Shown: one piece after another, positions 5,503 through 46,431 of the stretch | Layout of the letters: each line of letters opens with the position of its first letter | Position numbering within the stretch: the stretch's first letter is position 1 | Assembly: GCF_007994225.1 (NCBI RefSeq) | Contig: NZ_VLLL01000007.1 | Span: 365,686-429,685 of the forward strand | DNA length: 64,000 nt | DNA from: Stackebrandtia albiflava | GTDB taxonomy: Bacteria; Actinomycetota; Actinomycetes; Mycobacteriales; Micromonosporaceae | Reading direction: 5' to 3' | Made by a program: the position numbers and the translations under genes | Notes under the pieces: generated by a model | Told to the model about the DNA's origin: nothing | What the model saw: only the letters and a program-made list of their open reading frames with translations | The model's database searches: none

Positions 5503-6806
5503 CACGGGGGCCGCCGCCAGCACCGCCGCGGCCGCCGCGGCGCGCACCGGGTGACGCTCCGCCCACGCCGCCACGGCCGCCGTTCTCCGCCGGTGGCCCG
5601 GCTCGGGTGTCGTGGACAGCCGGTCCAGCGGGCTACCGGTAAACACGACGGCTCCCACGGCCGCTCCTCCGCCGACAACAGTCTCGTGAGCCTGGGCCTG
5701 CCCGGTGTGGCACCGCCGGTGATCCGCCAGGCCGGACTCACCCTGATCCGGCCGTGATCCGGGTCGACCTCCAGCAGCGATATCTCCGACACCACCCGCC
5801 GGGCACCGATCCTGCGCATGTGGACGACCACCCGAAGCGCCGCCGCGATCAATGCGTACAGGCCGGGCCGTGACAGGCCGTGCGGCAGCGCCAACGCCGC
5901 CAACCGGGCGGGTACGTCGGCGGCCGTGTTGGCGTGGACCGTTCCGGCGCTCCCGTCGTGCCCGGTGTTGAGGGCCGCGAGGAGTTCGATGACCTCGGCG
6001 CCCCGGCACTCACCGACCACGATCCGGTCCGGACGCATCCGCAGCGCCTGCCGGACCAGCGACGCCAGGTTCACCTCACCGGCACCGTCCACGTTGGCCT
6101 GCCTGGTTCGCAGGCTCACCACCTGCGGGTGCCGTGGCGCGAGCTCCGGTGAATCCTCGACGACCACGATGCGTTCACCGTCCGGAACCGACTCCAGCAG
6201 GCTGCGCAACAGTGTGGTCTTGCCGCTGCCGGTACCGCCCGACACCAGGAACGGCAGACGCCTAGCCACGATACGAGCCACCCACTGCGCCGACTCCGGC
6301 GTGAACGTGCCGGCCTGGATCAGCCCCGCCATGTCGAACGCGACCGGTCGATGGGTCCGCAGGCTCAGGTACGGCCCCGCGACCGCCAGCGGAGGCAGGA
6401 CCGCGTGCAGCCGCGTCCCGTCCGGGAGCCGCACGTCCACGAACGGGTGCGCGTCGTCCAGGCGCCGCCCGGCCGCGGTCGCCAACCGCGCCGCCAACTC
6501 CCGCACCGAGGCGGCGTCGGGGAAACACACGTCGGTGGGTCGCAGCCCCTCGCCCGAGTCGGCCCACACCACGCCCGGGCCGTTCACCAGGACGTCCGTC
6601 ACGTCGGGCGTGTCGAGGAGCGGTTGCAACCGCCCGGCCCCGGTCAGGTCGTCGGTCAACCGGCCCGCGAGGCCCAGCAGGGCGGGACCCGTCACGGGGG
6701 CGCGCCCTGTCGCGTGCAGTGCCGCAGCCACGTCGCCACCGGACACGTCGTCTCGTGTATCCGAGAGCAGTTGGCGGCGCACCGCCTTCAACAACGCCGT
6801 GGTCAT
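5502..6806 (-). CDS. tadA: CpaF/TadA family pilus assembly ATPase
   Basis: Walker A GGTGSGKTT, Walker B IVVGE and a secretion-ATPase His box. The ATG overlaps the upstream ssd stop as ATGA. Confidence 0.9.
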   Translation of the reverse strand: MTTALLKAVRRQLLSDTRDDVSGGDVAAALHATGRAPVTGPALLGLAGRLTDDLTGAGRLQPLLDTPDVTDVLVNGPGVVWADSGEGLRPTDVCFPDAASVRELAARLATAAGRRLDDAHPFVDVRLPDGTRLHAVLPPLAVAGPYLSLRTHRPVAFDMAGLIQAGTFTPESAQWVARIVARRLPFLVSGGTGSGKTTLLRSLLESVPDGERIVVVEDSPELAPRHPQVVSLRTRQANVDGAGEVNLASLVRQALRMRPDRIVVGECRGAEVIELLAALNTGHDGSAGTVHANTAADVPARLAALALPHGLSRPGLYALIAAALRVVVHMRRIGARRVVSEISLLEVDPDHGRIRVSPAWRITGGATPGRPRLTRLLSAEERPWEPSCLPVARWTGCPRHPSRATGGERRPWRRGRSVTRCAPRRPRRCWRRPP

Positions 6807-9396: not shown

Positions 9397-9957
9397 TCAC
9401 TCCACCGCCTGGGCCAGCACCTCCAGTGCCTTGGCGACGTTCTCCGGCGGCTGGTCGCTGTTGCCCTCCCGCAGGATGCGGGTCGCCTCGGCGGCGAGCC
9501 CGCGCAGCCTGTCCCGTTCCGCCACTATGGACGCCATCCGCGCCACCTCCGACTTGGTGCGCTCCTTCATGCTCCACAGGTCGACGAATATCGACACCTT
9601 GGCGCGGAGCGCCCACGGATCGAACGGTTTGGTGATGTAGTCGACGGCCCCGGCGGCGTACCCGCGGAACGCCATGTGGGAGTCCTTGTCGGCGGCGGTC
9701 AGGAAGATGATCGGGGTGTGCCGGGTGGCCTCCCGCTGTTTGATGCGTTGCGCCGTCTCGAAGCCGTCCATGCCGGGCATCTGGGCGTCGAGCAGGATGA
9801 CCGCGAACTCCTCGGTGAGGAGTTTCTTCAACGCCCCCTCCCCGGACGTGACCGCCACCGTGGACACCGGCATGCCCTGCATGATCGCCTCGAGGGCCAC
9901 CAGGTTCTCCCGCCGGTCGTCGACCAGCAGCACCCTCGCCTGGCGTGTCCCGCTCAT
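9397..9957 (-). CDS. single-domain response regulator (REC)
   Basis: VLLVDD...D...LLDAQMPGMDG...K motifs of a receiver domain. The ATG overlaps the kinase stop. Confidence 0.8.
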   Translation of the reverse strand: MSGTRQARVLLVDDRRENLVALEAIMQGMPVSTVAVTSGEGALKKLLTEEFAVILLDAQMPGMDGFETAQRIKQREATRHTPIIFLTAADKDSHMAFRGYAAGAVDYITKPFDPWALRAKVSIFVDLWSMKERTKSEVARMASIVAERDRLRGLAAEATRILREGNSDQPPENVAKALEVLAQAVE

Positions 9958-12900
9958 CCCGCGTCCTCCTGTCCGGCCGCGGCGTTGTCGCCGCCCGCGA
10001 TCCAATATGCCATCAGGTCGAGGAGCTCATCGAGGTCGACCGGCTTGGTGACATAGGACGAGGCGCCCGCGTCGAAGCTGGCGTCCCGGTCGGCGGGCAT
10101 CGCCTTCGCGGTCAGGAAGATCACCGGCAGGTCGGCGAACCTGGGGATGCGGCGGATCGCCCGGGTGGTCTCGTTGCCGTCCATGTCCGGCATCATCGCG
10201 TCCATCAGGACGATGTCGACGTCTTCGCGTTCGGTGAGGCGGGCGATGCCGTCGGCGCCGTTGTCGGCGTAGACGACGGTGATGCCGTGCATCTCCAGTG
10301 CGGCCGTCAACGCGAACACGTTCCGCACGTCGTCGTCGACGATCAGGACCGTGGAGCCCTCCAGTTCCGCCATGGCGGGGCGGTGGTCCTCGCTCGATCC
10401 GGAGCCGCCGCGCAGGATGGGGCGGTTCTGCCAGTCCCCGGAGTCGCCTTCGGCGGGTTCGGGCTCCGGCAGGGCCATCGGCAGGTCGCTGACGTTGAAC
10501 GGTTCGGCGGCGAGCCGGTCGGGGACGTACAGCGTGAAGGTGCTGCCCTCTCCCTCGCGGGTGTCGATGGTGACGGTGCCGCCGAGCAGTTCCGCGTACG
10601 ACTTGCTGATCGACAGGCCGAGCCCGGTGCCGCCGTACTTGCGGGCGGTGCCGCCGTCGGCCTGCTGGAACGGCTCGAAGATCAGCGTCAGCTTGTCGTC
10701 GGAGATGCCGATCCCGCTGTCGGTGACGGAGAACCCGTATACGCGTTCGGCGTTGTCGAGCGACGGGATGCCGAACATGACGTCCGAGGCGACCGTGTCG
10801 ACCCGCAGTGACACCGACCCACCGGAGTCGGTGAACTTGACGGCGTTCGACAGCAGGTTCCGCAGCACCTGCTGGAGTTTCTGTGAGTCGGTGACGAACG
10901 TCGCCGGGGTGCCCGGCGCGATCTCGACGCTGAAGTCGAGGCCCTTCTCCTCTGCCTGCGGCCGGAAGTTCTGTTCGGCGTGCCCGAACAGTTCCGCGAA
11001 CGACACCTCGTGCGGATCGACGTCCATCCGGCCCGCCTCGATCTTCGACAGGTCGAGGATGTCGTCGATGAGCGCCAGCAGGTCGGATCCGGCACTGTGG
11101 ATGGTCTTGGCGAAGTCGATCTGCTTGTCGGTGAGGTTGGCCTCGGTGTTCTCGGCGAGCAGCCGCGCCAGCAGCAGCAGCGAGTTCAGCGGCGTCCGCA
11201 GCTCGTGGCTGATGTTGGCCAGGAACTCGCTCTTGTAGCGGGACGCCTGCGCGAGCTGTTCGGCCTTCTCCTCGAGCCCGATGCGGGCGTTCTCGACGTC
11301 CCGGTTCTTGATCTCGATCTCGCGGTTCTGGGCGCCGAGCTGCCGGGCGGTCTCCTCCAGTTCGTCGTTGGCGCGTTGCAGCTCGTAGGAGCGTTCTCGG
11401 ATCTCGTCGGCCATCCGGCGGGACTCGGTGAGCAGCGCGTCCTGCCTGGCGTTGGCGGCGATGTTGTTCAACGCGGTGCCGATGTTGGTGCCGAGCCGTT
11501 CCAGGAAGGAGATGTGCAGCGGCGAGAACTTGTGGAACGACGCGAACTCGACGACGCCCAACGGCTCGCCCTCGAACTGGATGGGCATGATGACGACGTC
11601 GGCGGGCGTGGCCTCGCCCAGGCCCGAACGGATCGTGAGGTAGCCGTCGGGGATGTCGGTGACCCGGATGGTGTGGCGCGACGCCGCCGCCTGCCCGACG
11701 AGTCCCTCGCCGGGCGCGTACACGACCTCGGTGCCGGGTTGGGCGTAGCCGTACCAGCCGGTGAGGCTGAAGCGTTCGCTTCCGTCGCCCTTGGTCTCCT
11801 TGGTGAAGAAGGTGCCGGTCTGGGCTTCGACCAGCGGGGTCACCTCGTTCATGATCATGCGGCAGACCTCGCCGACCTCCCGCTGGCCCTGGAGGAGGCC
11901 GGACACCCGGGCGAGGTTGGAGTTCATCCAGTCGGCGTCGGCGTTCTTGGTGGTGGTCTCGCGCAGCGCCACGATCATCTGGTTGATGCTCTCGCGCAGT
12001 TCGGCGACCTCGCCGGCCGCTTCGACGTTGACCGACTGGGTGAGGTCGCCCTGCGCGACGGAGTCGGCGACCTGTGCGATCGACCGCAACTGGTTGGTGA
12101 GGGTGGTCGCCAGGCCGTTGACGTTGTCGGTGAGTGCCCGCCACGTGCCGGAGACGTCCTTGACCTCCGCCTGGCCGCCGAGGCGGCCCTCGGTGCCGAC
12201 CTCGCGGGCGACCCTGGTGACCTCACCGGCGAAGCTGGACAACTGGTCGACCATCGTGTTGACGGTGTTCTTCAGTTCCAGGATCTCGCCCTGCGCGTCG
12301 ACGGTGATCTTCTGGTTGAGGTCGCCCTGCTCCACGGCCTTGGTGACGGTGGCGATGTTGCGGACCTGCTCGGTGAGGTTCGACGCCATCGAGTTGACGT
12401 TGTCGGTGAGGTCCTTCCAGGTGCCGGAAACGCCCCGCACCTCCGCCTGACCGCCCAACTTCCCCTCGGTGCCGACCTCCCGGGCGACCCGGGTCACCTC
12501 GCCGGCGAAACTGGACAACTGGTCCACCATCGTGTTCATGGTGTTCTTCAACTGCAGGATCTCGCCCTGCGCGTCCACGGTGATGGTCTGGGACAGGTCG
12601 CCTTCGGCGACGGCGGTGGCGACGGTGGCGATGTTGCGGACCTGCTCGGTCAGGTTCGACGCCATCTGGTTGACGTTGTCCGTCAACTCCTTCCAGATGC
12701 CGGACGCCTCCCGGACGTTCGCCTGACCGCCCAGGCGGCCCTCGGTGCCGACCTCCCGGGCGACCCGGGTCACCTCGTCCGCGAACCGGGACAGCTGTTC
12801 CACCATGGTGTTCATGGTGTTCTTGAGTTCGTGGATCTCGCCCTGCGCGTCCACGGTGATCTTCTGCGACAGGTCGCCCAGCGCCACCGCGGTCGCGACG

Positions 12901-14348
12901 GCCGAGATGTTGCGGACCTGTTCGGTCAGGTTGAACGCCATGAGGTTGACGTTCTGGGTGAGGTCCTTCCAGATGCCGGAGACGCCGCTGACGTTGGCCT
13001 GACCGCCGAGGCGGCCCTGTGTGCCGACCTCCCGCGCCAACCGGTTGACCTCGTCACCGAAGCTGGACAACTGGTCGACCATCGTGTTGACGGTGTTCTT
13101 CAGCGCCGCGACCTCGCCCTGCGCGTCGACGGTGATCTTCTGCGACATGTCGCCCTGCGCGACGGCCTTCGTGACCGACGCGATGTTGCGGACCTGGTCG
13201 GTGAGGTTGCGGGCGAGCTGGTTGACGTTCTCGGTGAGGTCCCGCCACGTGCCGGACACCCCGTAGACCTGCGCCTGGCCGCCGAGGCGGCCCTCGGTGC
13301 CGACCTCGCGGGCGACCCGGGTCACCTCGCCGGCGAAGCTGGACAACTGGTCCACCATCGTGTTGACGGTGTTCTTCAACTCCAGGATCTCGCCCTGCGC
13401 GGCGACGGAGATCTTCTGCGACAGGTCGCCCTGCGCGACCGCGGTCGCGACCGTGGCGATGTTACGGACCTGCTCGGTCAGGTTCGACGCCATCGAGTTG
13501 ACGTTCTCGGTGAGGTCCTTCCAGGTGCCCGCGACACCCGGCACCTCGGCCTGGCCGCCGAGTTTGCCCTCGGTGCCGACCTCCCGGGCGACCCGGGTGA
13601 CCTCCCCCGCGAACACCTGGAGCGTGTTGGTGAGGGAGTTGATCGTGTCGGCGAGTTCGGCGACCTCCCCCTTGGCGTCGACGTCGACGGTCTGGTCGAG
13701 GTCACCGGCGGCGATCGCGTTGGTGACGCGGGCGATGGAGCGCACCTGGTTGGTCAGGTTCGACGCCATCGTGTTGACCGAGTCGGTGAGCGACCGCCAA
13801 CGGCCCGAGACGCCCTGGATGTCGGCCTGGCCGCCCAGTTTCCCGTCGACGCCCACCTCACGTGCCACTCGGGTCACCTCGTCCGCGAACGCGGCGAGCA
13901 GGTCGACCATGCGGTTGACCGTCTCGGCGATGCCGCGGAACTCCCCCCGCAGCGGCCGCCCCTCGATCTCCAGGTGGGCGCGTTGCGCCAGGTCGCCCTC
14001 GGCGACGGCGTTCAGGACGCGGGCGATCTCGGAGGTGGGCCGGACCACGTCGTCTACCAGGCCGTTGACCGCTTCGGCACCGGTGCGCCACGAACCGTCG
14101 AGGTGTTCCACGTCGAGCCGTTCGTTGAGCCTGCCCTCCCGGCCCACGACCCGGCTGATCAACTGGAGTTCACGGGTGTGCCGGTCGGAGCGTTCGGCGA
14201 GGCCGTTGAACCGGTCGGCCACCAGCCCCGCGACACCCTCCCCGCGCGGCAGCCGGACCGTGAAGTCGCCGGCCTCCAGCTTGCGAAGTCCTTCGGCAAG
14301 TGACTCCAGCAGGGTGTCGTCGGTGACGGCCACCTGGGTGCCTGTCAT
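9954..14348 (-). CDS. hybrid sensor histidine kinase with a poly-HAMP array, GAF, HisKA, HATPase_c and a C-terminal REC domain
   Basis: About 9 tandem ~92-aa HAMP-like units ([24 protein letters not shown]...[12 protein letters not shown]), GAF, an H-box [10 protein letters not shown]-boxes DSGIGI/GGTGLGL, and a receiver domain LIVDDD...DAMMPDMDG. Confidence 0.9.
11900..13900. repeat. Intragenic 276-bp tandem DNA repeats (about 7 copies) encoding the HAMP units
   Basis: Near-identical segments recur at 276-bp spacing. Plus-strand pseudo-ORFs starting [11 protein letters not shown] occur at 12469, 12745, 13021 and 13297. Confidence 0.85.
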
Positions 14349-14386: not shown

Positions 14387-16471
14387 GTGATCACGGGATC
14401 ACCCGTCGTGTTTTCCGCCCTCCCCCGCATCCCGGCTTCACCGGTGCGGGAGACTCAGGTGGTGTCTGTTCGTGCACGTAAACAGCTTCGACTGCCGGCT
14501 GATCACCGGTCGCCCGCCGCGGCACGCGCCGTGGTGCGTGAAGTCCTCGCCGAAGTGGGCCTGACGGACCTGCTGGACGAGGCGCTTCTGCTCACCACCG
14601 AGCTGGCCACCAACGGCGTCGTTCACGCCGGTACGGATATCGACGTCAACGTCGTGGCCGATGACTCCGGGGTCACAGTAACCGTAACCGACTATCGGTC
14701 CGGTCCGATAGAGCCGACGACGTTGACACCACCCGACGAGATGGCCGAACACGGCCGGGGCCTGCTCCTGGTGGACCAGTTCGCGTCGTCGTGGGGCACC
14801 AGCCACGACGCGTCCGGCAAGGGCGTGTGGTTCCGCCTCGACCGGCACGGGAAGTCGGCGGGCACCGCCGAGCGTGGCGCGGAGGAGCCGCCCCCGGTGG
14901 CGTCGGCGGAGGTGTCGGAGGAGGACGTGGAGGCGACCGCCCGCGCCGCGGAGCGCGTGTCGTGGCTGATCCACGTCAACGACGAGTTGCGGCAACGCCT
15001 GACGTTGACGCAGCTGTTGTCGGAGATGCTGCTGCGGCTGTGCGAGGTCGTGGGCGCCGCCGGTGGCGTGGTGTGGCTCGACGGCGGGGACGGCCCGGTG
15101 GCACTGGCGAGGCAGGGCACCACGGGCACGGCGCCGCCGGTGCGGGTGCCGTTGCCGTTGACGCTGCCGGACTCCGGGCACCTGGAGGTGTTCCCGGACC
15201 GGCCCGCGCCACCGTACTGGTTGTCGCTGGCGGCGTTGTCGGCCGACCGGATGGGCCTGGCCATCGAGACCGACCGGATCGCGCACACCGACCGGCGGCG
15301 CCGGAACTGGCTGACGTTCCTGGCCGAGGCCGGTGAACTGTTGGCGCAGTCGCTGGACGTCGATCTGACGTTGGCGCTGATTCCGCAGATCATGGTGCCT
15401 CGGCTGGGTGAGTGGTCCGCGGTGCACGTCATCGACGAGTGGAACGAGCTGAAGCTCGCCGCGGTGCTGCACACCGACGAGTCGAAACTCCCCAGGTTGA
15501 AGCAGTTGCTGGGCGGTGCGGGAGCCGCCCGGTTGGCGGAGGCGCGGTCGGGTGGCGCGGTGGTCCCGTTGCCGCCTCCCCTGGAGGGCGTGGTGGTGCC
15601 GTTGACGGCGCGCGGCCAGGTGTTGGGGACGTTGACGGTGGGACGGCCCGTCGACCGTACGCACACGCCCGACGACATAACGATCCTGGAGGACGCGGCG
15701 CGGCGGGCGGCGTTGGCGATCGACAACGCCCGGATCCACTCCGACCGGCATCAGATCGCGCAGGCGTTCCAGCAGGCGTTGTTGCCGTCGGCGCTGCCGG
15801 TGGCCGAGGGCGTCGGGTTCGCCGCCGAGTACGTTCCGGCGTCGACGGGCACCGACGTCGGCGGGGACTTCTACGACGTCGTGGAGCTGTCCGGTGGCCG
15901 GTTCAGCGTGTCGGTGGGCGACGTGTGCGGCAAGGGCGCGCAGGCGGCGGCCGTGACGGGACTGGTCCGGGACGTGCTGCGCGTGATGGCGCGGGACGAG
16001 CGGCCGTTGCCCCGCACCCTGGAGTTGTTGAACCACACACTGCTGGAGCAGCCCGAGGAGGGACGGTACGCGACCCTGGCGACGGCGTTGGCGGAACCGG
16101 ACGGCGACGACCTCGCGGTGACGTTGTACCTGTCGGGCCACGAACGGCCGTTGCTGCTGCACGCCGACGGCCGGTGCGACTACGTGGGGAGCCTGGGAAC
16201 GGCGGTGGGCCTGCTGCCGAACCTGGCGGTGAACCCGGCGCGGCTGTCGCTGCGGCCCGGTGACGCCCTGGTGTTCTACACCGACGGGGTGACGGAGCGG
16301 CGGCACGGGAACCAGTTGTTCGGGCACTCGGGGATCTGCCGGGCGTTGCGTCCGCTCGGTGGCTATCCGGCGAAGGTGATCGCGACGAAGCTGCGCACCG
16401 AGGTGCTGAACTTCTCCGACGAGGACCCCCGCGACGACATGGCGATCCTGGTACTGGCCAACGAGACCTGA
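14387..16471 (+). CDS. RsbW-like HATPase (anti-sigma kinase) - GAF - PP2C/SpoIIE phosphatase fusion protein
   Basis: N-terminal RsbW-like [11 protein letters not shown]...HGRGLLLVD, a central GAF, and a C-terminal PP2C region ([18 protein letters not shown]). The start could also be the GTG at 14459, which is preceded by GGGAGA. Confidence 0.8.
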
Positions 16472-16473
16472 CG
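16432..16473. repeat. Left copy of a 42-bp direct repeat; it is the authentic 3' end of the PP2C gene
   Basis: CGACGACATGGCGATCCTGGTACTGGCCAACGAGACCTGACG, identical to 16967-17008. Confidence 0.9.
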
Positions 16474-16620
16474 ACTACGGAAGCATTTCGATTCGTTACT
16501 CGAATAGCATCGTCGCTATTGGATAACACCCGGCCGGCGGATAATTCTGCTGACGGTGTTCCGGAAGGCCCGGATGCGTGAGCGACGCGAGATCACGCGG
16601 GCACGCTGGGCCATGATCCG

Positions 16621-16944
16621 GTGCATGCGTGGTGGAGGAACAGGATGGCGACTGAGGAGAGTTGGCGTTCACTACGGAACCGACGCATGGCCGAACCGGG
16701 GGCGGCCGACGCTTATCGCGCAGCCGAGGTGGCATACGAACTGGGCGCGCAGGTTCATCGGCTCCGTATCGAGAATCGATGGACGCAGGAACAGCTCGCC
16801 GTCGCTGCCGGGATGACGCAATCGGCCGTGGCCAGGTTCGAGGCGGGGGCCGCGGTCCCGACGATCCCCGTTCTCGCCCGCCTTGCGAAGGCGTTGTCCA
16901 CCGAACTGTCGGTGTCCTTCGTGGACCGGCCCAAGGCGGGTTAG
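16621..16944 (+). CDS. XRE-family helix-turn-helix protein (HigA-like, orphan) lying between the 42-bp direct repeats
   Basis: HTH_3 signature WTQEQLAVAAGMTQSAVARFEAG. It is preceded by an unusually AT-rich 140-bp segment containing the inverted repeat AATAGC-N6-GCTATT. Confidence 0.65.
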   Translation: MHAWWRNRMATEESWRSLRNRRMAEPGAADAYRAAEVAYELGAQVHRLRIENRWTQEQLAVAAGMTQSAVARFEAGAAVPTIPVLARLAKALSTELSVSFVDRPKAG

Positions 16945-16966
16945 TCGACGTCTCGCGCGACCGCCA

Positions 16967-17008
16967 CGACGACATGGCGATCCTGGTACTGGCCAACGAG
17001 ACCTGACG
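16967..17008. repeat. Right copy of the 42-bp direct repeat
   Basis: Exact duplicate of 16432-16473, which encodes the C-terminus ...[12 protein letters not shown] of the PP2C gene. Confidence 0.9.
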
Positions 17009-17010
17009 GG

Positions 17011-17706
17011 TCACCGCCGGGACAGGTAGTGGCGGCGTAGTTCCGGGGTCAGTCTCTCGACGGCGTAGCGCAGTGTGACGCGGGGCAGGCCGGGGAAGCG
17101 GTCGAGGAAGTCGCGCAGCCGGGATTCGTCGACGCGGCCGATCTCCCGCAGCGCCACCCCCACCGACTTGTTCACCAGCTCCTCCGGGTCGTCGCGCAGC
17201 CGTTCCGCCAGTGCGAGGGGGTCGTCGAGGTCGCCCTGCCGGATGATCCAGAACGCGGCGGTGATCGCGGTGCGGCGTTCCCACCGGTCGGTGGATTCCG
17301 CGAGCCGGAACAACGGGTCACGTGGCTTGTCCAGCAGGTACCCGCCGACCACCCTGGGCGCCGCCCGGTCCACCAGGTCCCAGTTGTCGATCCGGTCGTG
17401 CCGCCGCAGGTAGAGCTCGTAGCACAGGCGCCTCTCCTCGTCCGTGACGCGGCGGCGGCGCACCTTGAAGTCGAGGACGGCGACCGCTCCGACGCGGGCC
17501 TCGTAGTACCGGCTCTCCAGTAGGCGTTCCACCTCGGCCGGCGGCATCGCGACGTGGCGTTTCGCGGTGTCGAAGACGTCTCTCATGCGCAGGCCCATGA
17601 ACAGCGTGTCCTCGCCGCCGTGGAAGTGCCGGGGTCTCTCGGCCCCGCCGTCCCGGCGTTCGTGCGTCGCCAGTTCCGTGATGAAGGCGTCTGCGGTGGT
17701 TTCCAC
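17011..17706 (-). CDS. DNA alkylation repair protein (AlkD/AlkC-like HEAT-repeat glycosylase family)
   Basis: DNA_alkylation-family sequence (YYEARVGAVAVL...RAAPRVVGGYL...NKSVGVALREIG). The GTG at 17706 was chosen; the longer ORF upstream overlaps ptrB. Confidence 0.6.
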   Translation of the reverse strand: METTADAFITELATHERRDGGAERPRHFHGGEDTLFMGLRMRDVFDTAKRHVAMPPAEVERLLESRYYEARVGAVAVLDFKVRRRRVTDEERRLCYELYLRRHDRIDNWDLVDRAAPRVVGGYLLDKPRDPLFRLAESTDRWERRTAITAAFWIIRQGDLDDPLALAERLRDDPEELVNKSVGVALREIGRVDESRLRDFLDRFPGLPRVTLRYAVERLTPELRRHYLSRR

Positions 17707-17844
17707 GGTGTCCTCGCTCGGTGTGGTGGGCGCTGGGAACCGAACGGTACGCGCCGGGTGGGACGACGGTGTGACGGCACACGGGGTGCGGGAGCCGTGC
17801 GGCGGGCACCGTCCGGTCACGACATTGGCGGGTAGCCTGACCGG

Positions 17845-19908
17845 ATGCAGAATCCACCGGTCGCGAAACGCGTCGACAGCCCCCGTACCCATCACGGCGA
17901 CACCGTGAACGACCCGTATGCCTGGCTCCGTGACTCCGACAACCCCGAGACGATCGCCCACCTCAAGGCGGAGAACGAGTACACCGAAGGACTCACCGGT
18001 CATCTGGCCGGGCTGCGCGGCGAGATATTCGACGAGATAAAGAACCGCACCCAGGAGACCGACCTGTCCGTGCCGTTCCGCAAGGGCGGGTGGTGGTACT
18101 ACACCCGGACCGTGGAGGGCCGGCAGTACGGCATCCACTGCCGGGTGAAGGCCGACGGCGACACGCCGCCGGAACTGGGTGACGGTTCGGCGTTGCCGGG
18201 CGAGGAGGTGTTGTTGGACGAGAACGCGCTCGCGGAGGGGCATGACTTCTTCTCGCTGGGCGTGTTCGACGTGTCATGCGACGGCAACCTGTTGGCCTAC
18301 GCCGTGGACTTCGCGGGGAACGAACGGTTCACCCTGAAGTTCAAGGACCTGGGCACCGGCGTCGACCTGCCGGACGTCATCGAGGGCGTCTTCTACGGTG
18401 GCGCGTGGAGCCGTTCGGGCGACTACTTCTTCTACGCCACGGTCGACGAGACGTGGCGGCCGGACAAGATCTGGCGGCACCGGCTCGGCGACACCGGTGA
18501 CGACCCGCTGGTCTACACCGAGACCGACGAACGCTTCTGGACCGGTATCGAGCTGTCCCGCAGTGAGGAGTACCTGTTCCTGGAGTCGCATTCGAAGGTG
18601 ACGTCGGAGATCCGGTTCCTGGCCGCCGGCGACCCGACCGGCGAGTTCACCGTGATGGGACCGGGCCGCCGCACCGGCATCGAGGTCAGCGTCGACCACC
18701 AGGGTGACCGGTTCATCGTGCTGCACAACGACGGCGCGGAAAACTTCGTGCTCGGTTGGACGCCGGTGGACGACACGACCCGGTTCCACACCCTCATCGA
18801 ACACCGCGACGACACCCGGCTGGAGGGCGCGGAGGCGTTCGCGGACCACATCGTGGTGCACCTGCGGTCGGAGGGACTGTCGGGGATCCGGATCCTCCCG
18901 AATGACGGCCCGGCGCGCGACATCCGGTTCGACGAGCCGGTGTACACGGCGCGCCCGACCACCAACCCCGAGTACCGGACGGGCATGCTGCGGCTGTCGT
19001 ACCAGTCGCTGGTGACACCGGACTCGGTGTACGACTACGACATCGCGACTGGGGAACTGTTGCTGCGCAAGCAGAAGCCCGTGCTCGGCGGTTACCGTCC
19101 CGAGGACTACCGGCAGCAGCGCGACTGGGCGACGGCCGCGGACGGCACCCGGATCCCGATCTCGATCGTGCACCGCGCGGACGTGACCCCGGACGGTACG
19201 GCGCCCTGCCTGCTGTACGGCTACGGCAGCTACGAGACCAGCATCGACCCGTACTTCTCGGCCGTGCGGCTGTCGCTTCTGGACCGTGGCGTGGTGTACG
19301 CGATCGCCCACGTGCGCGGTGGTGGCGAGATGGGCCGCCACTGGTACGAGAACGGCAAGATGCTGCACAAGAAGAACACGTTCACCGACTTCGTCGCCTG
19401 TGCCGAGCACATGGTGTCGGCGGGCTGGTCGGCTCCGGACGGGCTCGTCGCACGCGGCGGATCCGCCGGTGGCCTGCTGATGGGCGCGGTCACGAACCTG
19501 GCCCCGGACCGGTTCGCGGGCGTGTGCGCGGAGGTGCCGTTCGTGGACGCCCTCAACACGATCCTCGACCCGTCGCTGCCGTTGACGGTCATCGAATGGG
19601 ACGAGTGGGGCGACCCGCTGCACGACCCCGAGGTGTACCGGTACATGAAGTCGTACAGTCCGTACGAGAACGTCACCGCGACGGACTACCCGCCGATCCT
19701 GGCGGTCACCAGCCTCAACGACACGCGGGTGGGCTTCCACGAGCCCGCCAAGTGGGTCGCGAGGTTGCGGGCGGAGGCCACCGGCGGGCCGTTCCTGTTG
19801 AAGACGGAGATGGAGGCCGGGCACGGCGGCCGCTCCGGCAGGTACGACGCCTGGCACGAGGAGGCGTTCAACCTCGCCTGGATCCTGGACCGGATGGGCA
19901 AGGCGTAA
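17845..19908 (+). CDS. ptrB: oligopeptidase B (protease II), S9A prolyl oligopeptidase family
   Basis: S9A N-terminal beta-propeller plus a C-terminal alpha/beta hydrolase with GGSAGG nucleophile elbow. Length 687 aa. Confidence 0.85.
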   Translation: MQNPPVAKRVDSPRTHHGDTVNDPYAWLRDSDNPETIAHLKAENEYTEGLTGHLAGLRGEIFDEIKNRTQETDLSVPFRKGGWWYYTRTVEGRQYGIHCRVKADGDTPPELGDGSALPGEEVLLDENALAEGHDFFSLGVFDVSCDGNLLAYAVDFAGNERFTLKFKDLGTGVDLPDVIEGVFYGGAWSRSGDYFFYATVDETWRPDKIWRHRLGDTGDDPLVYTETDERFWTGIELSRSEEYLFLESHSKVTSEIRFLAAGDPTGEFTVMGPGRRTGIEVSVDHQGDRFIVLHNDGAENFVLGWTPVDDTTRFHTLIEHRDDTRLEGAEAFADHIVVHLRSEGLSGIRILPNDGPARDIRFDEPVYTARPTTNPEYRTGMLRLSYQSLVTPDSVYDYDIATGELLLRKQKPVLGGYRPEDYRQQRDWATAADGTRIPISIVHRADVTPDGTAPCLLYGYGSYETSIDPYFSAVRLSLLDRGVVYAIAHVRGGGEMGRHWYENGKMLHKKNTFTDFVACAEHMVSAGWSAPDGLVARGGSAGGLLMGAVTNLAPDRFAGVCAEVPFVDALNTILDPSLPLTVIEWDEWGDPLHDPEVYRYMKSYSPYENVTATDYPPILAVTSLNDTRVGFHEPAKWVARLRAEATGGPFLLKTEMEAGHGGRSGRYDAWHEEAFNLAWILDRMGKA

Positions 19909-19955: not shown

Positions 19956-20525
19956 TCAGGGGTGGGGCGCGGTCAGGTACCGCTGCACGGTCGGACCGAC
20001 CCACGCGACCAGTTCCCGTTTCGGCATGTCCACCACGGGTGGGAAACACAGCACGTATCGGCACAACGCGACGCCGAGGATCTGGCTCGCGGCCAGCGCG
20101 GCCCGTGACGCGGCCTCCGCCGGGTCGGTGTGCAGGGCGGCGATGACGGGGACCAACTGTCCTGCGAAGACCTCTCGCATCCGGTCGGCGGCGGCCGGGT
20201 CGGTGGCTCCCCGGCGCAGCAACGCCATGAGTGTGTCGTCGCCGTCCCAACGTTCCACGAAGTGCTCCACCAGGGCCGCGCCGACGCGCTCGGGCGGCAG
20301 CGCCGACAGGTCGGGAAGCCGCAGTTCGAACTCGGCGGCGGCGGCGAACAGTCGCTCCTTGTTTCCGAAGTACCGCATGACCATGGAGGGGTCGATCTCG
20401 GCGTCGGCGGCGATGCGGCGGATCGTCGTCCGGTCGTAGCCGTGTCGGGAGAAGTGATCGCGCGCCGTGGCGAGGATGCGGGCGCGGGTCTCGGCGGATC
20501 TGGGTCTCACCTGCTCGGACGTCAT
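19956..20525 (-). CDS. TetR/AcrR family transcriptional regulator
   Basis: TetR_N HTH ARDHFSRHGYDRTTIRRIAADAEIDPSMVMRYFGNKERLF. The ATG at 20525 was chosen. Confidence 0.8.
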   Translation of the reverse strand: MTSEQVRPRSAETRARILATARDHFSRHGYDRTTIRRIAADAEIDPSMVMRYFGNKERLFAAAAEFELRLPDLSALPPERVGAALVEHFVERWDGDDTLMALLRRGATDPAAADRMREVFAGQLVPVIAALHTDPAEAASRAALAASQILGVALCRYVLCFPPVVDMPKRELVAWVGPTVQRYLTAPHP

Positions 20526-20538
20526 GCCCACGAGTGTA

Positions 20539-45090: not shown

Positions 45091-45277
45091 CCCCACCGGA
45101 ACCACCTCCTTGCTCAGCGCGACGACGCGCGAGTCCCCTTGCGATCTGTGAGGTACCGACTACATGTTGCCATAGATTCTCGCGCGACACAAGTTGTGGG
45201 AGTGGCTAAATCGCGGCGAGTCGCCATCTTCTAAACTGAGTGGCGTTTCGATTACCGAAGCCGTTGGGGGCGAAGTC

Positions 45278-46144
45278 ATGACCGACACCATGGGGCCTAC
45301 GCTGCGGGCACGCTGGCTGGGCAGCAAGATGAAGGAACTCCGCAAGGCACGGAAGCTGAAACTCGCGCAGGTGGGCGACCTGTTGAAGCGGCACCAGGGA
45401 ACCGTCAGCCGCTTCGAATCCGGTGAGTACCCCATCCCCAGCAACGAACTGCTGCAAATGCTGGACCTGTACGGCGTCTCGGACATCGGCCAGCGATCCG
45501 ACCTTCTACAACTCTCCGAAGACGTCGCGCAACGCGGCTGGTGGGACGGCTACCGGCCGTTCATCAACAACAACTTCGCCGACTTCGTGTGGCTGGAGAA
45601 CAACGCCCATGCCGTTAGCTTTCTCGGGCTCACGTCGATTTCGGGTCTACTTCAGACGACGGACTATGCCACCGCGCTTATCAGCAACGGTCCACAGCGC
45701 CACGACGAGTTCGAGATGAAACGACTCCTGGAAGCACGTCTGGTACGGAAACAGCTTCTCGAAAGGCCGGAATCGCCCTCATTTCGATTTTTGCTCCATG
45801 AAGCTCTACTGCATCAGCAGGTGGGGAGCCCGGAGGTTACAGCTGGGCAGCTAAGAAACTTGTTGAGCCTTTCGGCGTATCCCCGCGTGGAGTTGAAGGT
45901 CCTGCCACTTACCGCCTGGAGGCACACCGCCGCCGGGATGGCAACCGAGTACACGGTCTTCGAACTACGAGAGCCGTTCCCAACGGTTGTTGGAGTTGAC
46001 ACCTCAGCGGGCGCAATCTACAAGGAAGCACCCGACATACACTCGTTTACCAACACGTTCAATTCGCTCTGGCAAGACGACGCCCTCAGCGAATCCAACA
46101 GCATGACATGCATAGAGACGCTCATAAGGGAAATATCACCGTGA
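45278..46144 (+). CDS. Scr1-family regulator: N-terminal XRE HTH plus C-terminal DUF5753
   Basis: HTH (LAQVGDLLKRHQGTVSRFESGE) plus a DUF5753-like C-terminus. A partner DUF397 gene lies downstream. GGGGG lies before the ATG. Confidence 0.8.
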   Translation: MTDTMGPTLRARWLGSKMKELRKARKLKLAQVGDLLKRHQGTVSRFESGEYPIPSNELLQMLDLYGVSDIGQRSDLLQLSEDVAQRGWWDGYRPFINNNFADFVWLENNAHAVSFLGLTSISGLLQTTDYATALISNGPQRHDEFEMKRLLEARLVRKQLLERPESPSFRFLLHEALLHQQVGSPEVTAGQLRNLLSLSAYPRVELKVLPLTAWRHTAAGMATEYTVFELREPFPTVVGVDTSAGAIYKEAPDIHSFTNTFNSLWQDDALSESNSMTCIETLIREISP

Positions 46145-46431
46145 CCAGGCGTAGCAATCCGCTTCCCACCGCAAGATGGCGAAAGAGCACCCGTAGTAAC
46201 GGAACAGGCAACGGCAACTGTGTCGAGGTGGCCTGCCTCCACGACGCCGCGTGGCGCAAGAGCACGCACAGCAACGGCAACGGCGGTTCTGCCTGCCTGG
46301 AGGTCGCGCCGGTGGCCGCCGCGATCGCACTGCGTGACTCGAAACTGGCCACCACCGGCGACTTCCCGCACCTGATCGTGCCCGTCACCGAATGGGCAGG
46401 GCTGCTCGCCGCCGTCGAGTCCGACCGGTAG
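46141..46431 (+). CDS. DUF397 domain protein (tandem DUF397 repeats)
   Basis: WRKSTRSNGTGNGNCVEVA and WRKSTHSNGNGGSACLEVA. The GTG overlaps the upstream stop as GTGA. Confidence 0.8.
   Translation: MTRRSNPLPTARWRKSTRSNGTGNGNCVEVACLHDAAWRKSTHSNGNGGSACLEVAPVAAAIALRDSKLATTGDFPHLIVPVTEWAGLLAAVESDR

Follow-up and report, generated by a model that had tools for sequence, protein, structure and literature searches.

How did a solitary helix-turn-helix (HTH) gene come to lie between two exact copies of the end of a neighbouring host gene? The question is raised by a locus in Stackebrandtia albiflava (contig NZ_VLLL01000007.1, positions 365,686 to 429,685; this whole stretch of 64,000 nucleotides is referred to below as the window), where the last 42 bp of a PP2C-type phosphatase gene are found again beyond a short insert, just before a convergent gene for DNA-alkylation repair (ALK). 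The arrangement had been described in an earlier note on this DNA, and its observation is confirmed: the insertion is specific to the S. albiflava lineage, as seen against 47 orthologous loci, and foreign in composition, as judged from the GC content at third codon positions (GC3). The insert proves to be what is left of a two-gene toxin–antitoxin (TA) module of the higBA type, and the account that we favour, with slightly better than even confidence, is that a bare TA cassette was inserted with a long duplication of its target and subsequently lost its toxin.

The 42-bp repeat and the composition of the insert

The 42-mer CGACGACATGGCGATCCTGGTACTGGCCAACGAGACCTGACG occurs in two exact copies in the window (42 of 42 positions identical), bracketing 493 bp just as had been reported (Table 1). 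No third copy is present in the 64 kb when up to three mismatches are allowed, and 100 shuffles gave a count of 0. Inexactly, the pair can be extended to 48/50 from 16424/16959. The similarity of the left flanks (40 nt each, end-anchored alignment) is not significant (295 of 5000 shuffles equal it), and nothing is shared on the right side of the two copies, so the repeat is best described as about 42 bp long with sharp edges. Upstream of copy 2, a diverged stretch that resembles PP2C ("SRDRHDD") was considered as a further extension and rejected, its similarity likewise not being significant.

Insertion sequences (IS) and transposons also leave direct repeats around the point of insertion; their target-site duplications, however, are typically 2–14 bp, as against 42 bp here, and the present insert has neither a transposase nor terminal inverted repeats (none at the insert ends among the 25 longest of the 51 inverted pairs listed). 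The largest IS target duplication cited is the 19–26 bp of IS1630 (PMC2853133). The earlier judgement that 42 bp is too long for an IS target-site duplication therefore stands, and both an IS element and a miniature inverted-repeat transposable element (MITE) are ruled out.

The chance that the repeat is an artefact of assembly or sequencing, or a fortuitous similarity, is practically negligible. The HTH gene is annotated beside the PP2C gene in two separately deposited S. albiflava assemblies, and over 6.3 kb, both 42-mers included, the deposited sequence BAABIJ010000003.1 does not differ from the window. Since the two assemblies agree on gene order and one of them is identical over this length, the repeat is not an assembly artefact, a danger that the earlier note had itself pointed out. 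Furthermore, 42 bp is shorter than a sequencing read, and a match of 42/42 has an expectation of 0 in shuffled sequence.

The AT-rich segment noted previously is real, in a relative sense: GC content is 0.52–0.60 in 16450–16600, falling to 0.47 for 16474–16516, versus 0.70–0.75 around it. GC3 is 0.76 in the antitoxin gene and 0.67 in the toxin remnant versus 0.90–0.94 in the surrounding kinase, phosphatase, alkylation-repair and peptidase genes, which marks the cassette as foreign. Three features together suggest that the events at this locus are recent: the repeat is still perfect, codon usage has not ameliorated, and the toxin remnant shows no decay.

Anatomy of a decayed toxin–antitoxin cassette

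The insert contains an operator, a toxin remnant and an antitoxin gene, and in addition to these only 29 and 22 nt. Of the 107-aa XRE/HigA-like gene proposed earlier, the HTH assignment is upheld by Pfam and the length is probably too great: translation more likely begins with the ATG at 16645 (99 aa), which GGAGGA precedes at 16634–16639, than with the GTG at 16621 (107 aa), and the shorter form agrees with the length of the family and with one database annotation. Homologues number 709; the best 120 of them are 57–67% identical over the full length, mostly 99 aa long and derived from actinomycetes. The protein aligns end to end with 23 homologues and retains all of the invariant family columns (32/32). 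In the genome contexts examined, the homologues are encoded directly downstream of a PF05973 (Gp49) gene of 104–121 aa, often with a 4-bp overlap, and the nearest solved relative of this partner is the HigB toxin 6AF3 (E 4e-6). Because its homologues pair with a HigB-related PF05973 toxin, the HTH protein can be recognised as the antitoxin of a higBA-type module. In NCBIfam the toxin has no match and all cut-offs lie above the score of the antitoxin; this actinobacterial Gp49/XRE subfamily is without a characterised member.

An intact full-length cognate toxin is absent from the window, and 52 homologous loci have the full toxin N-terminus. What remains of the toxin was detected by tblastn with the protein of a Micromonospora cassette (L081), residues 69–105 of which align at 16517–16627 with 27 of 37 positions identical (E 2e-14); the position of the former toxin stop now reads TGG (16646–16648). 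Upstream, the palindrome characteristic of the family runs directly into TGG ATA ACA..., corresponding to toxin codons 70 onward, and the start ATG has become ATT. This fusion of the palindrome to codon 70 indicates that one deletion removed the start codon and codons 1–68 and kept the operator. With a toxin remnant and the operator of the family both identified, the suggestion that the orphan HTH gene belongs to a toxin–antitoxin remnant is borne out. The cassette shares with HigBA-type type II TA modules the order of its genes, toxin first, an XRE antitoxin of 99 aa and, in the promoter region, a putative palindromic operator; those modules have an intact toxin, whereas here a single clean deletion from operator to codon 70 has left 37 codons. 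Orphan antitoxins are common, and toxin loss that spares the antitoxin has been widely reported. Elsewhere in the Gp49/XRE family, another orphan antitoxin, with no toxin upstream, is found in locus L123 (4923–5300), and in L130 (4205–5300) about 350 bp of proline-/serine-rich repetitive sequence separate toxin and antitoxin.

Of 57 intact family cassettes, 49 have the motif [AT]AGC..GCT[AT], in its fuller form ATAGC-N6-GCTAT, right where the toxin gene begins, ending 1 nt into the toxin ATG; upstream of it, no conservation is apparent across the 57 family loci. In the window the motif takes the form ATAGCATCGTCGCTAT at 16504–16519, identical to that of two other cassettes (L117 and L086). Similarly, the toxin start regions of loci L081–L165 show, in nearly all cassettes, TATAGCAT-N3-4-GCTAT ending at the toxin ATG, and TAGCAT, about 7 nt before this ATG, resembles the −10 box of a leaderless operon placed inside its own operator. 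Judged from sequence, TAGCAT is a candidate −10 element of such an operon, and the palindrome is a putative operator/promoter of the TA module. The inverted repeat AATAGC-N6-GCTATT of the earlier note is thus present, and its identity with the conserved family palindrome at the toxin start rules it out both as the terminus of an element and as a terminator, its DNA fold also being not unusual (z −1.2). Neither a terminator-like nor a sigma-70 consensus site was found in 16300–17200, and the same interval contains no structured RNA with an Rfam match at E ≤ 1.

Table 1 Features of the insertion locus, given in coordinates of the window
Feature	Position	Strand	Evidence and remarks
PP2C-type, RsbU-like phosphatase gene (HATPase_c_2/GAF/SpoIIE), open reading frame (ORF) of 694 aa	14387..16471	+	Pfam SpoIIE 1.8e-37, HATPase_c_2 6.9e-10, GAF 3.5e-8
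Direct repeat, copy 1	16432..16473	+	Final 13 codons of the PP2C gene including stop, then CG
Left spacer, 29 nt, AT-rich	16474..16502	+	Not conserved in the TA family
Putative operator palindrome AATAGC-ATCGTC-GCTATT	16503..16520	+	Contains −10-like TAGCAT at 16505–16510
Gp49/PF05973 (HigB-like) toxin remnant, codons ~69–105, YWITPGRRIILLTVFRKARMRERREITRARWAMIRCM	16517..16648	+	tblastn; without start codon
XRE-family (HTH_31/HTH_3) antitoxin gene, 99 aa, intact, orphan	16645..16944	+	PF13560 3e-14, PF01381 3e-12
Right spacer, 22 nt	16945..16966	+	No significant likeness to the PP2C sequence before copy 1
Direct repeat, copy 2	16967..17008	+	Non-coding; stop codon of the convergent gene 2 nt beyond
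DNA-alkylation-repair (ALK) gene, PF08713, convergent, right host flank	17011..17706	-	Pfam 2e-42; GC3 0.905, native-like

Relatives of the locus and of the cassette

For comparison, we retrieved the sequence of 47 orthologous PP2C loci from Micromonosporaceae, Pseudonocardiaceae, Phytomonospora, four Stackebrandtia-like genomes and others, orthology being judged by the conserved divergent kinase gene with its HAMP array. In the sequence retrieved, none of the 47 carries an HTH insert downstream of the PP2C gene, and in none is the PP2C 3′ end repeated in full or nearly so (45 loci by exact-repeat scan; L204 and L205 by BLAST, which returned only a 35-bp match of 83%). A shared arrangement with diverged repeats, which had been named as the mark of an ancient and immobile structure, is accordingly not seen in these loci. 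In the closest orthologue, from Ca. S. excrementipullorum (87% aa identity), the protein ends in ...DEDPRDDIAILVVANEKD* and a convergent amidohydrolase gene follows 13 bp beyond. The gene downstream differs in this nearest genome, so that alignment is limited to the left flank; the comparison with an empty site that had been called for covers this flank, the insert being absent and the 3′ end single-copy in the 47 loci.

Ancestrally the PP2C gene has an oligopeptidase gene as its neighbour, and what lies between them differs from lineage to lineage. Compared across the window (16471–17845) and loci L010, L084, L204, L205 and L002, the slot between PP2C and oligopeptidase B varies: in Salinispora the genes are adjacent, elsewhere they are separated by about 0.8 kb without called genes in L204, by a 323-aa ORF in L205, by an amidohydrolase gene in L084, by about 1.5 kb in Micromonospora, and by the alkylation-repair gene plus the TA remnant in S. 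albiflava. The ALK gene is absent from the slot in all relatives examined, among which neither PP2C–TA nor PP2C–ALK adjacency was observed.

No integrase or recombinase is encoded in the insert, and Pfam identifies three of its neighbours as SpoIIE phosphatase, DNA_alkylation and peptidase S9 proteins; the called-gene table and the orthologous loci served to identify the HAMP kinase, and two ORFs beyond the peptidase gene, at 19956–20684 and 20467–21780, were read by eye, outside the Pfam scan. Relatives of the antitoxin were found in none of 72,556 plasmids and none of 50,697 phage records, and those in IMG/VR are only distant (at most 53% over part of the protein), so a phage or plasmid vehicle was rejected. 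The repeat sequence, searched in IMG/VR as a 33-base exact and a 39-base degenerate pattern, gave no match.

Within the TA family, the intact cassette is solitary amid housekeeping genes in three isolate genomes, without flanking repeats and with mobility genes lacking in the surrounding 8 kb. Around the family as a whole, long flanking repeats are enriched: exact ones of 20 bp or more were found at 3 of the 62 loci whose flanking DNA sufficed versus 1 of 1753 control positions in comparable DNA, from which the HAMP-repeat kinase gene was excluded. The three are this window, L126 and L091. In L126 the cassette lies between a tRNA-Leu gene (2–85) and a 23-bp copy of the tRNA 3′ end (1188–1210), and in L091 between 31/32 copies of the same core (366–397 and 1753–1784), the arm after the second repeat of L091 being homologous to the left arm of L126. 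Both are metagenomic, integrase-less islets of 1.1–1.4 kb between duplicated tRNA-Leu(GAG) 3′ ends, and the homology of their arms would suggest tandem accretion of elements at tRNA-Leu. Two further loci stand outside this count. In L150, repeats of at least 116 bp and 94% identity (1–116 and 991–1106) cover part of the 3′ half of an ORF, and the toxin is truncated to residues 77–109; the contig is 1.1 kb long, so the repeat length is a lower bound. In L145, 49/52 repeats (654–705 and 5748–5799) surround a 5.1-kb islet without integrase that encodes Fic, a CWB2 cell-wall-binding protein and, near one end, the TA module. L150, L145 and this window match a pattern of long target duplication.

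As to the host genes, the database annotation of the PP2C gene starts at 14462 (669 aa), its TGA stop occupies 16469–16471, and the native C-terminus of the protein agrees with that of relatives. Divergent from it is the gene for a 1464-aa hybrid histidine kinase with a long HAMP-repeat array (9954–14348, minus strand); this kinase–PP2C pair is conserved in Glycomycetales, Micromonosporales and Pseudonocardiales, and in relatives where that side is seen, a response regulator and a STAS protein are encoded beyond it. The kinase, PP2C, response regulator and STAS genes look like a partner-switching signalling cluster. An ORF of 114 aa at 16662–17006, ending in copy 2, overlaps the antitoxin gene in another frame, has no Pfam match and was treated as spurious. 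The lowest-GC kilobase of the window (0.60) is at 45194–46431, where the gene of an HTH_31/DUF5753 regulator is followed by one whose product carries DUF397 twice; the pair is paralogous and of a kind common among actinomycetes.

Routes of insertion

In the sequence of events that we favour, a two-gene higBA-type cassette comprising a Gp49/HigB-like toxin, an XRE antitoxin and its own palindromic operator/promoter would have been acquired horizontally and inserted where the two convergent host genes, PP2C and ALK, meet, leaving the last 42 bp of PP2C on both sides. Thanks to this duplication, the PP2C frame and the ALK gene are both intact; removal of the insert and one repeat in silico leaves the PP2C stop, 5 nt and the ALK stop. 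Having no recombinase of its own, the cassette would have been integrated by host functions, either through filling-in of a staggered double-strand break and capture of the fragment by end-joining, or through a Campbell-type crossover with a small circle bearing the 42 bp. A later deletion between TAT microhomologies, one at the start codon and the other at Tyr69 (TAT), would have joined the operator to toxin codon 70 and killed the toxin, the product being an autoregulated orphan antitoxin that kept its promoter/operator. This antitoxin, with its own Shine-Dalgarno sequence downstream of the operator, is presumably autorepressed, and it may be neutral or may act as an anti-addiction factor against related incoming toxins, an idea that exists for antitoxins (PMC2654758). 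The insert can be lost by homologous recombination between the 42-bp repeats.

The pattern that Kobayashi's group named insertion with long target duplication was described for restriction–modification (RM) modules (Nobusato et al. 2000, Gene 259:99; Furuta, Abe & Kobayashi 2010, PMC2853133). The RM precedents have target duplications of 30–400 bp, often over the start or stop of a flanking gene, and no mobility genes; in an example from H. influenzae, a 46-bp repeat overlaps the 3′ end of HI0105 (PMC2853133). Furuta et al. (2010) looked for an insert of less than 20 kb without mobility genes, a repeat of more than 30 bp, an empty site and a repeat that is not dispersed. Here, the 493-bp insert consists of the module only, the repeat matches at 42/42, the 3′ end is single-copy and free of insert in 47 loci, the nearest of which aligns at the left flank alone, and the repeat is confined to its two copies in the 64-kb window. 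RM modules inserted in this way are addiction-type units without a mobility gene, with deviant GC content and with repeats of more than 30 bp that are single-copy in relatives, all of which applies to the present locus. In contrast, they encode a DNA-cutting enzyme and this is a type II TA module with an RNase-family toxin, so the suggestion of DNA breakage made for RM modules is not transferable; moreover, here the comparison genome is that of another species and the right flank is not conserved. Of the readings offered by the earlier note, target duplication or duplication-mediated insertion is the best fit to what is a lineage-specific insertion of foreign DNA.

Several points weigh against the insertion of a bare cassette. 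Blocks of identity of 42 bp are of the size typical of actinobacterial attachment (att) cores. There is no strict empty site, the nearest genome being that of another species with a differing downstream neighbour. The enrichment of flanking repeats (3/62) includes the window itself and two related loci, L091 and L126, that share one site, and the position of these two between duplicated tRNA-Leu 3′ ends looks like the att-site signature of an integrase. Finally, because the mechanism of long target duplication is unexplained even for RM modules, the label names a pattern, not a process.

The main rival takes the two 42-mers for attL and attR of a site-specific element with a tyrosine integrase, be it an actinomycete integrative and conjugative element (AICE), a prophage or a genomic islet, that has decayed to a remnant resembling a cis-mobilizable element (CIME); attP would have carried the PP2C 3′ end, and internal deletions would have spared the TA module, the last part to go owing to addiction. 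We regard this as possible, at appreciably less than an even chance. Direct repetition of a gene 3′ end including the stop is a classical integrase footprint, which the locus reproduces at a length in the att-core range, with AT-rich DNA beginning right after copy 1; L126 and L091, with their tRNA-Leu 3′-end copies and homologous arms, and L145, with its repeat-bounded islet and a TA module near one end, point the same way. CIMEs and decayed islets are, like this insert, short segments between direct repeats of the target gene 3′ end without recombination genes of their own, and TA modules are their typical last survivors. However, no integrase is encoded in the insert or in the four adjacent genes scanned, L145 lacks one too, and neither a matching integrase nor an autonomous sister element nor an attP came to light. 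Since non-cassette DNA amounts to just 29 + 22 nt (about 50 nt), the deletions would have stopped at both edges of the cassette, leaving the repeat perfect and the remnant undecayed. Nor does the target, a PP2C gene, show any sign of a recurrent att site: occupancy or a footprint at its 3′ end is seen in 0 of 47 orthologous loci, the repeat patterns are absent from IMG/VR, and the TA family is absent from the plasmid and phage collections. The tiny integrative element with att sites that had been envisaged is thus not borne out, for want of an integrase, of a relative using the PP2C 3′ end and of a viral match. Very improbable, in our estimate, is a different order of events, in which the TA cassette came first and copy 2 together with ALK was imported later from a close relative by homology-facilitated illegitimate recombination, the donor having PP2C and ALK adjacent and the exchange having one end in the peptidase gene and the other 42 bp inside the donor PP2C. 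The slot is indeed variable (adjacent genes in Salinispora, other fillers in L084, L204 and L205), ALK is absent from it in the relatives examined, and the native-like GC3 of ALK is as a donor of the same species predicts. Yet for such an import the donor must have had the same 42 bp throughout, and the illegitimate end must by chance have restored the exact gene end; it leaves the flanking repeats of other family cassettes unexplained, and no relative has PP2C next to the TA module or next to ALK.

Taken by itself, the locus is an ordinary decayed TA islet whose footprint is fairly ordinary and of known kinds, with no obvious effect on the host genes. Its interest lies in the fact that the entry of chromosomal TA cassettes into genomes is poorly documented, most being solitary in intergenic DNA where their insertion is traceless. 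The S. albiflava locus appears to keep a young footprint, in which the insertion step and the decay step can be read at base resolution. Alongside the few relatives that are also flanked by repeats, it suggests that the long-target-duplication pattern of RM modules is common to TA cassettes as well. That Gp49/XRE cassettes are themselves insertion units at gene ends, with target duplications of 23 to more than 100 bp and no recombinase of their own, is a tentative proposal with a distinctly minor chance of being right. If true, the long-target-duplication route, so far described for RM modules, would also be open to TA modules, whose toxin leaves DNA uncut, and addiction modules in general would seem to be integrated along a pathway driven by the host.

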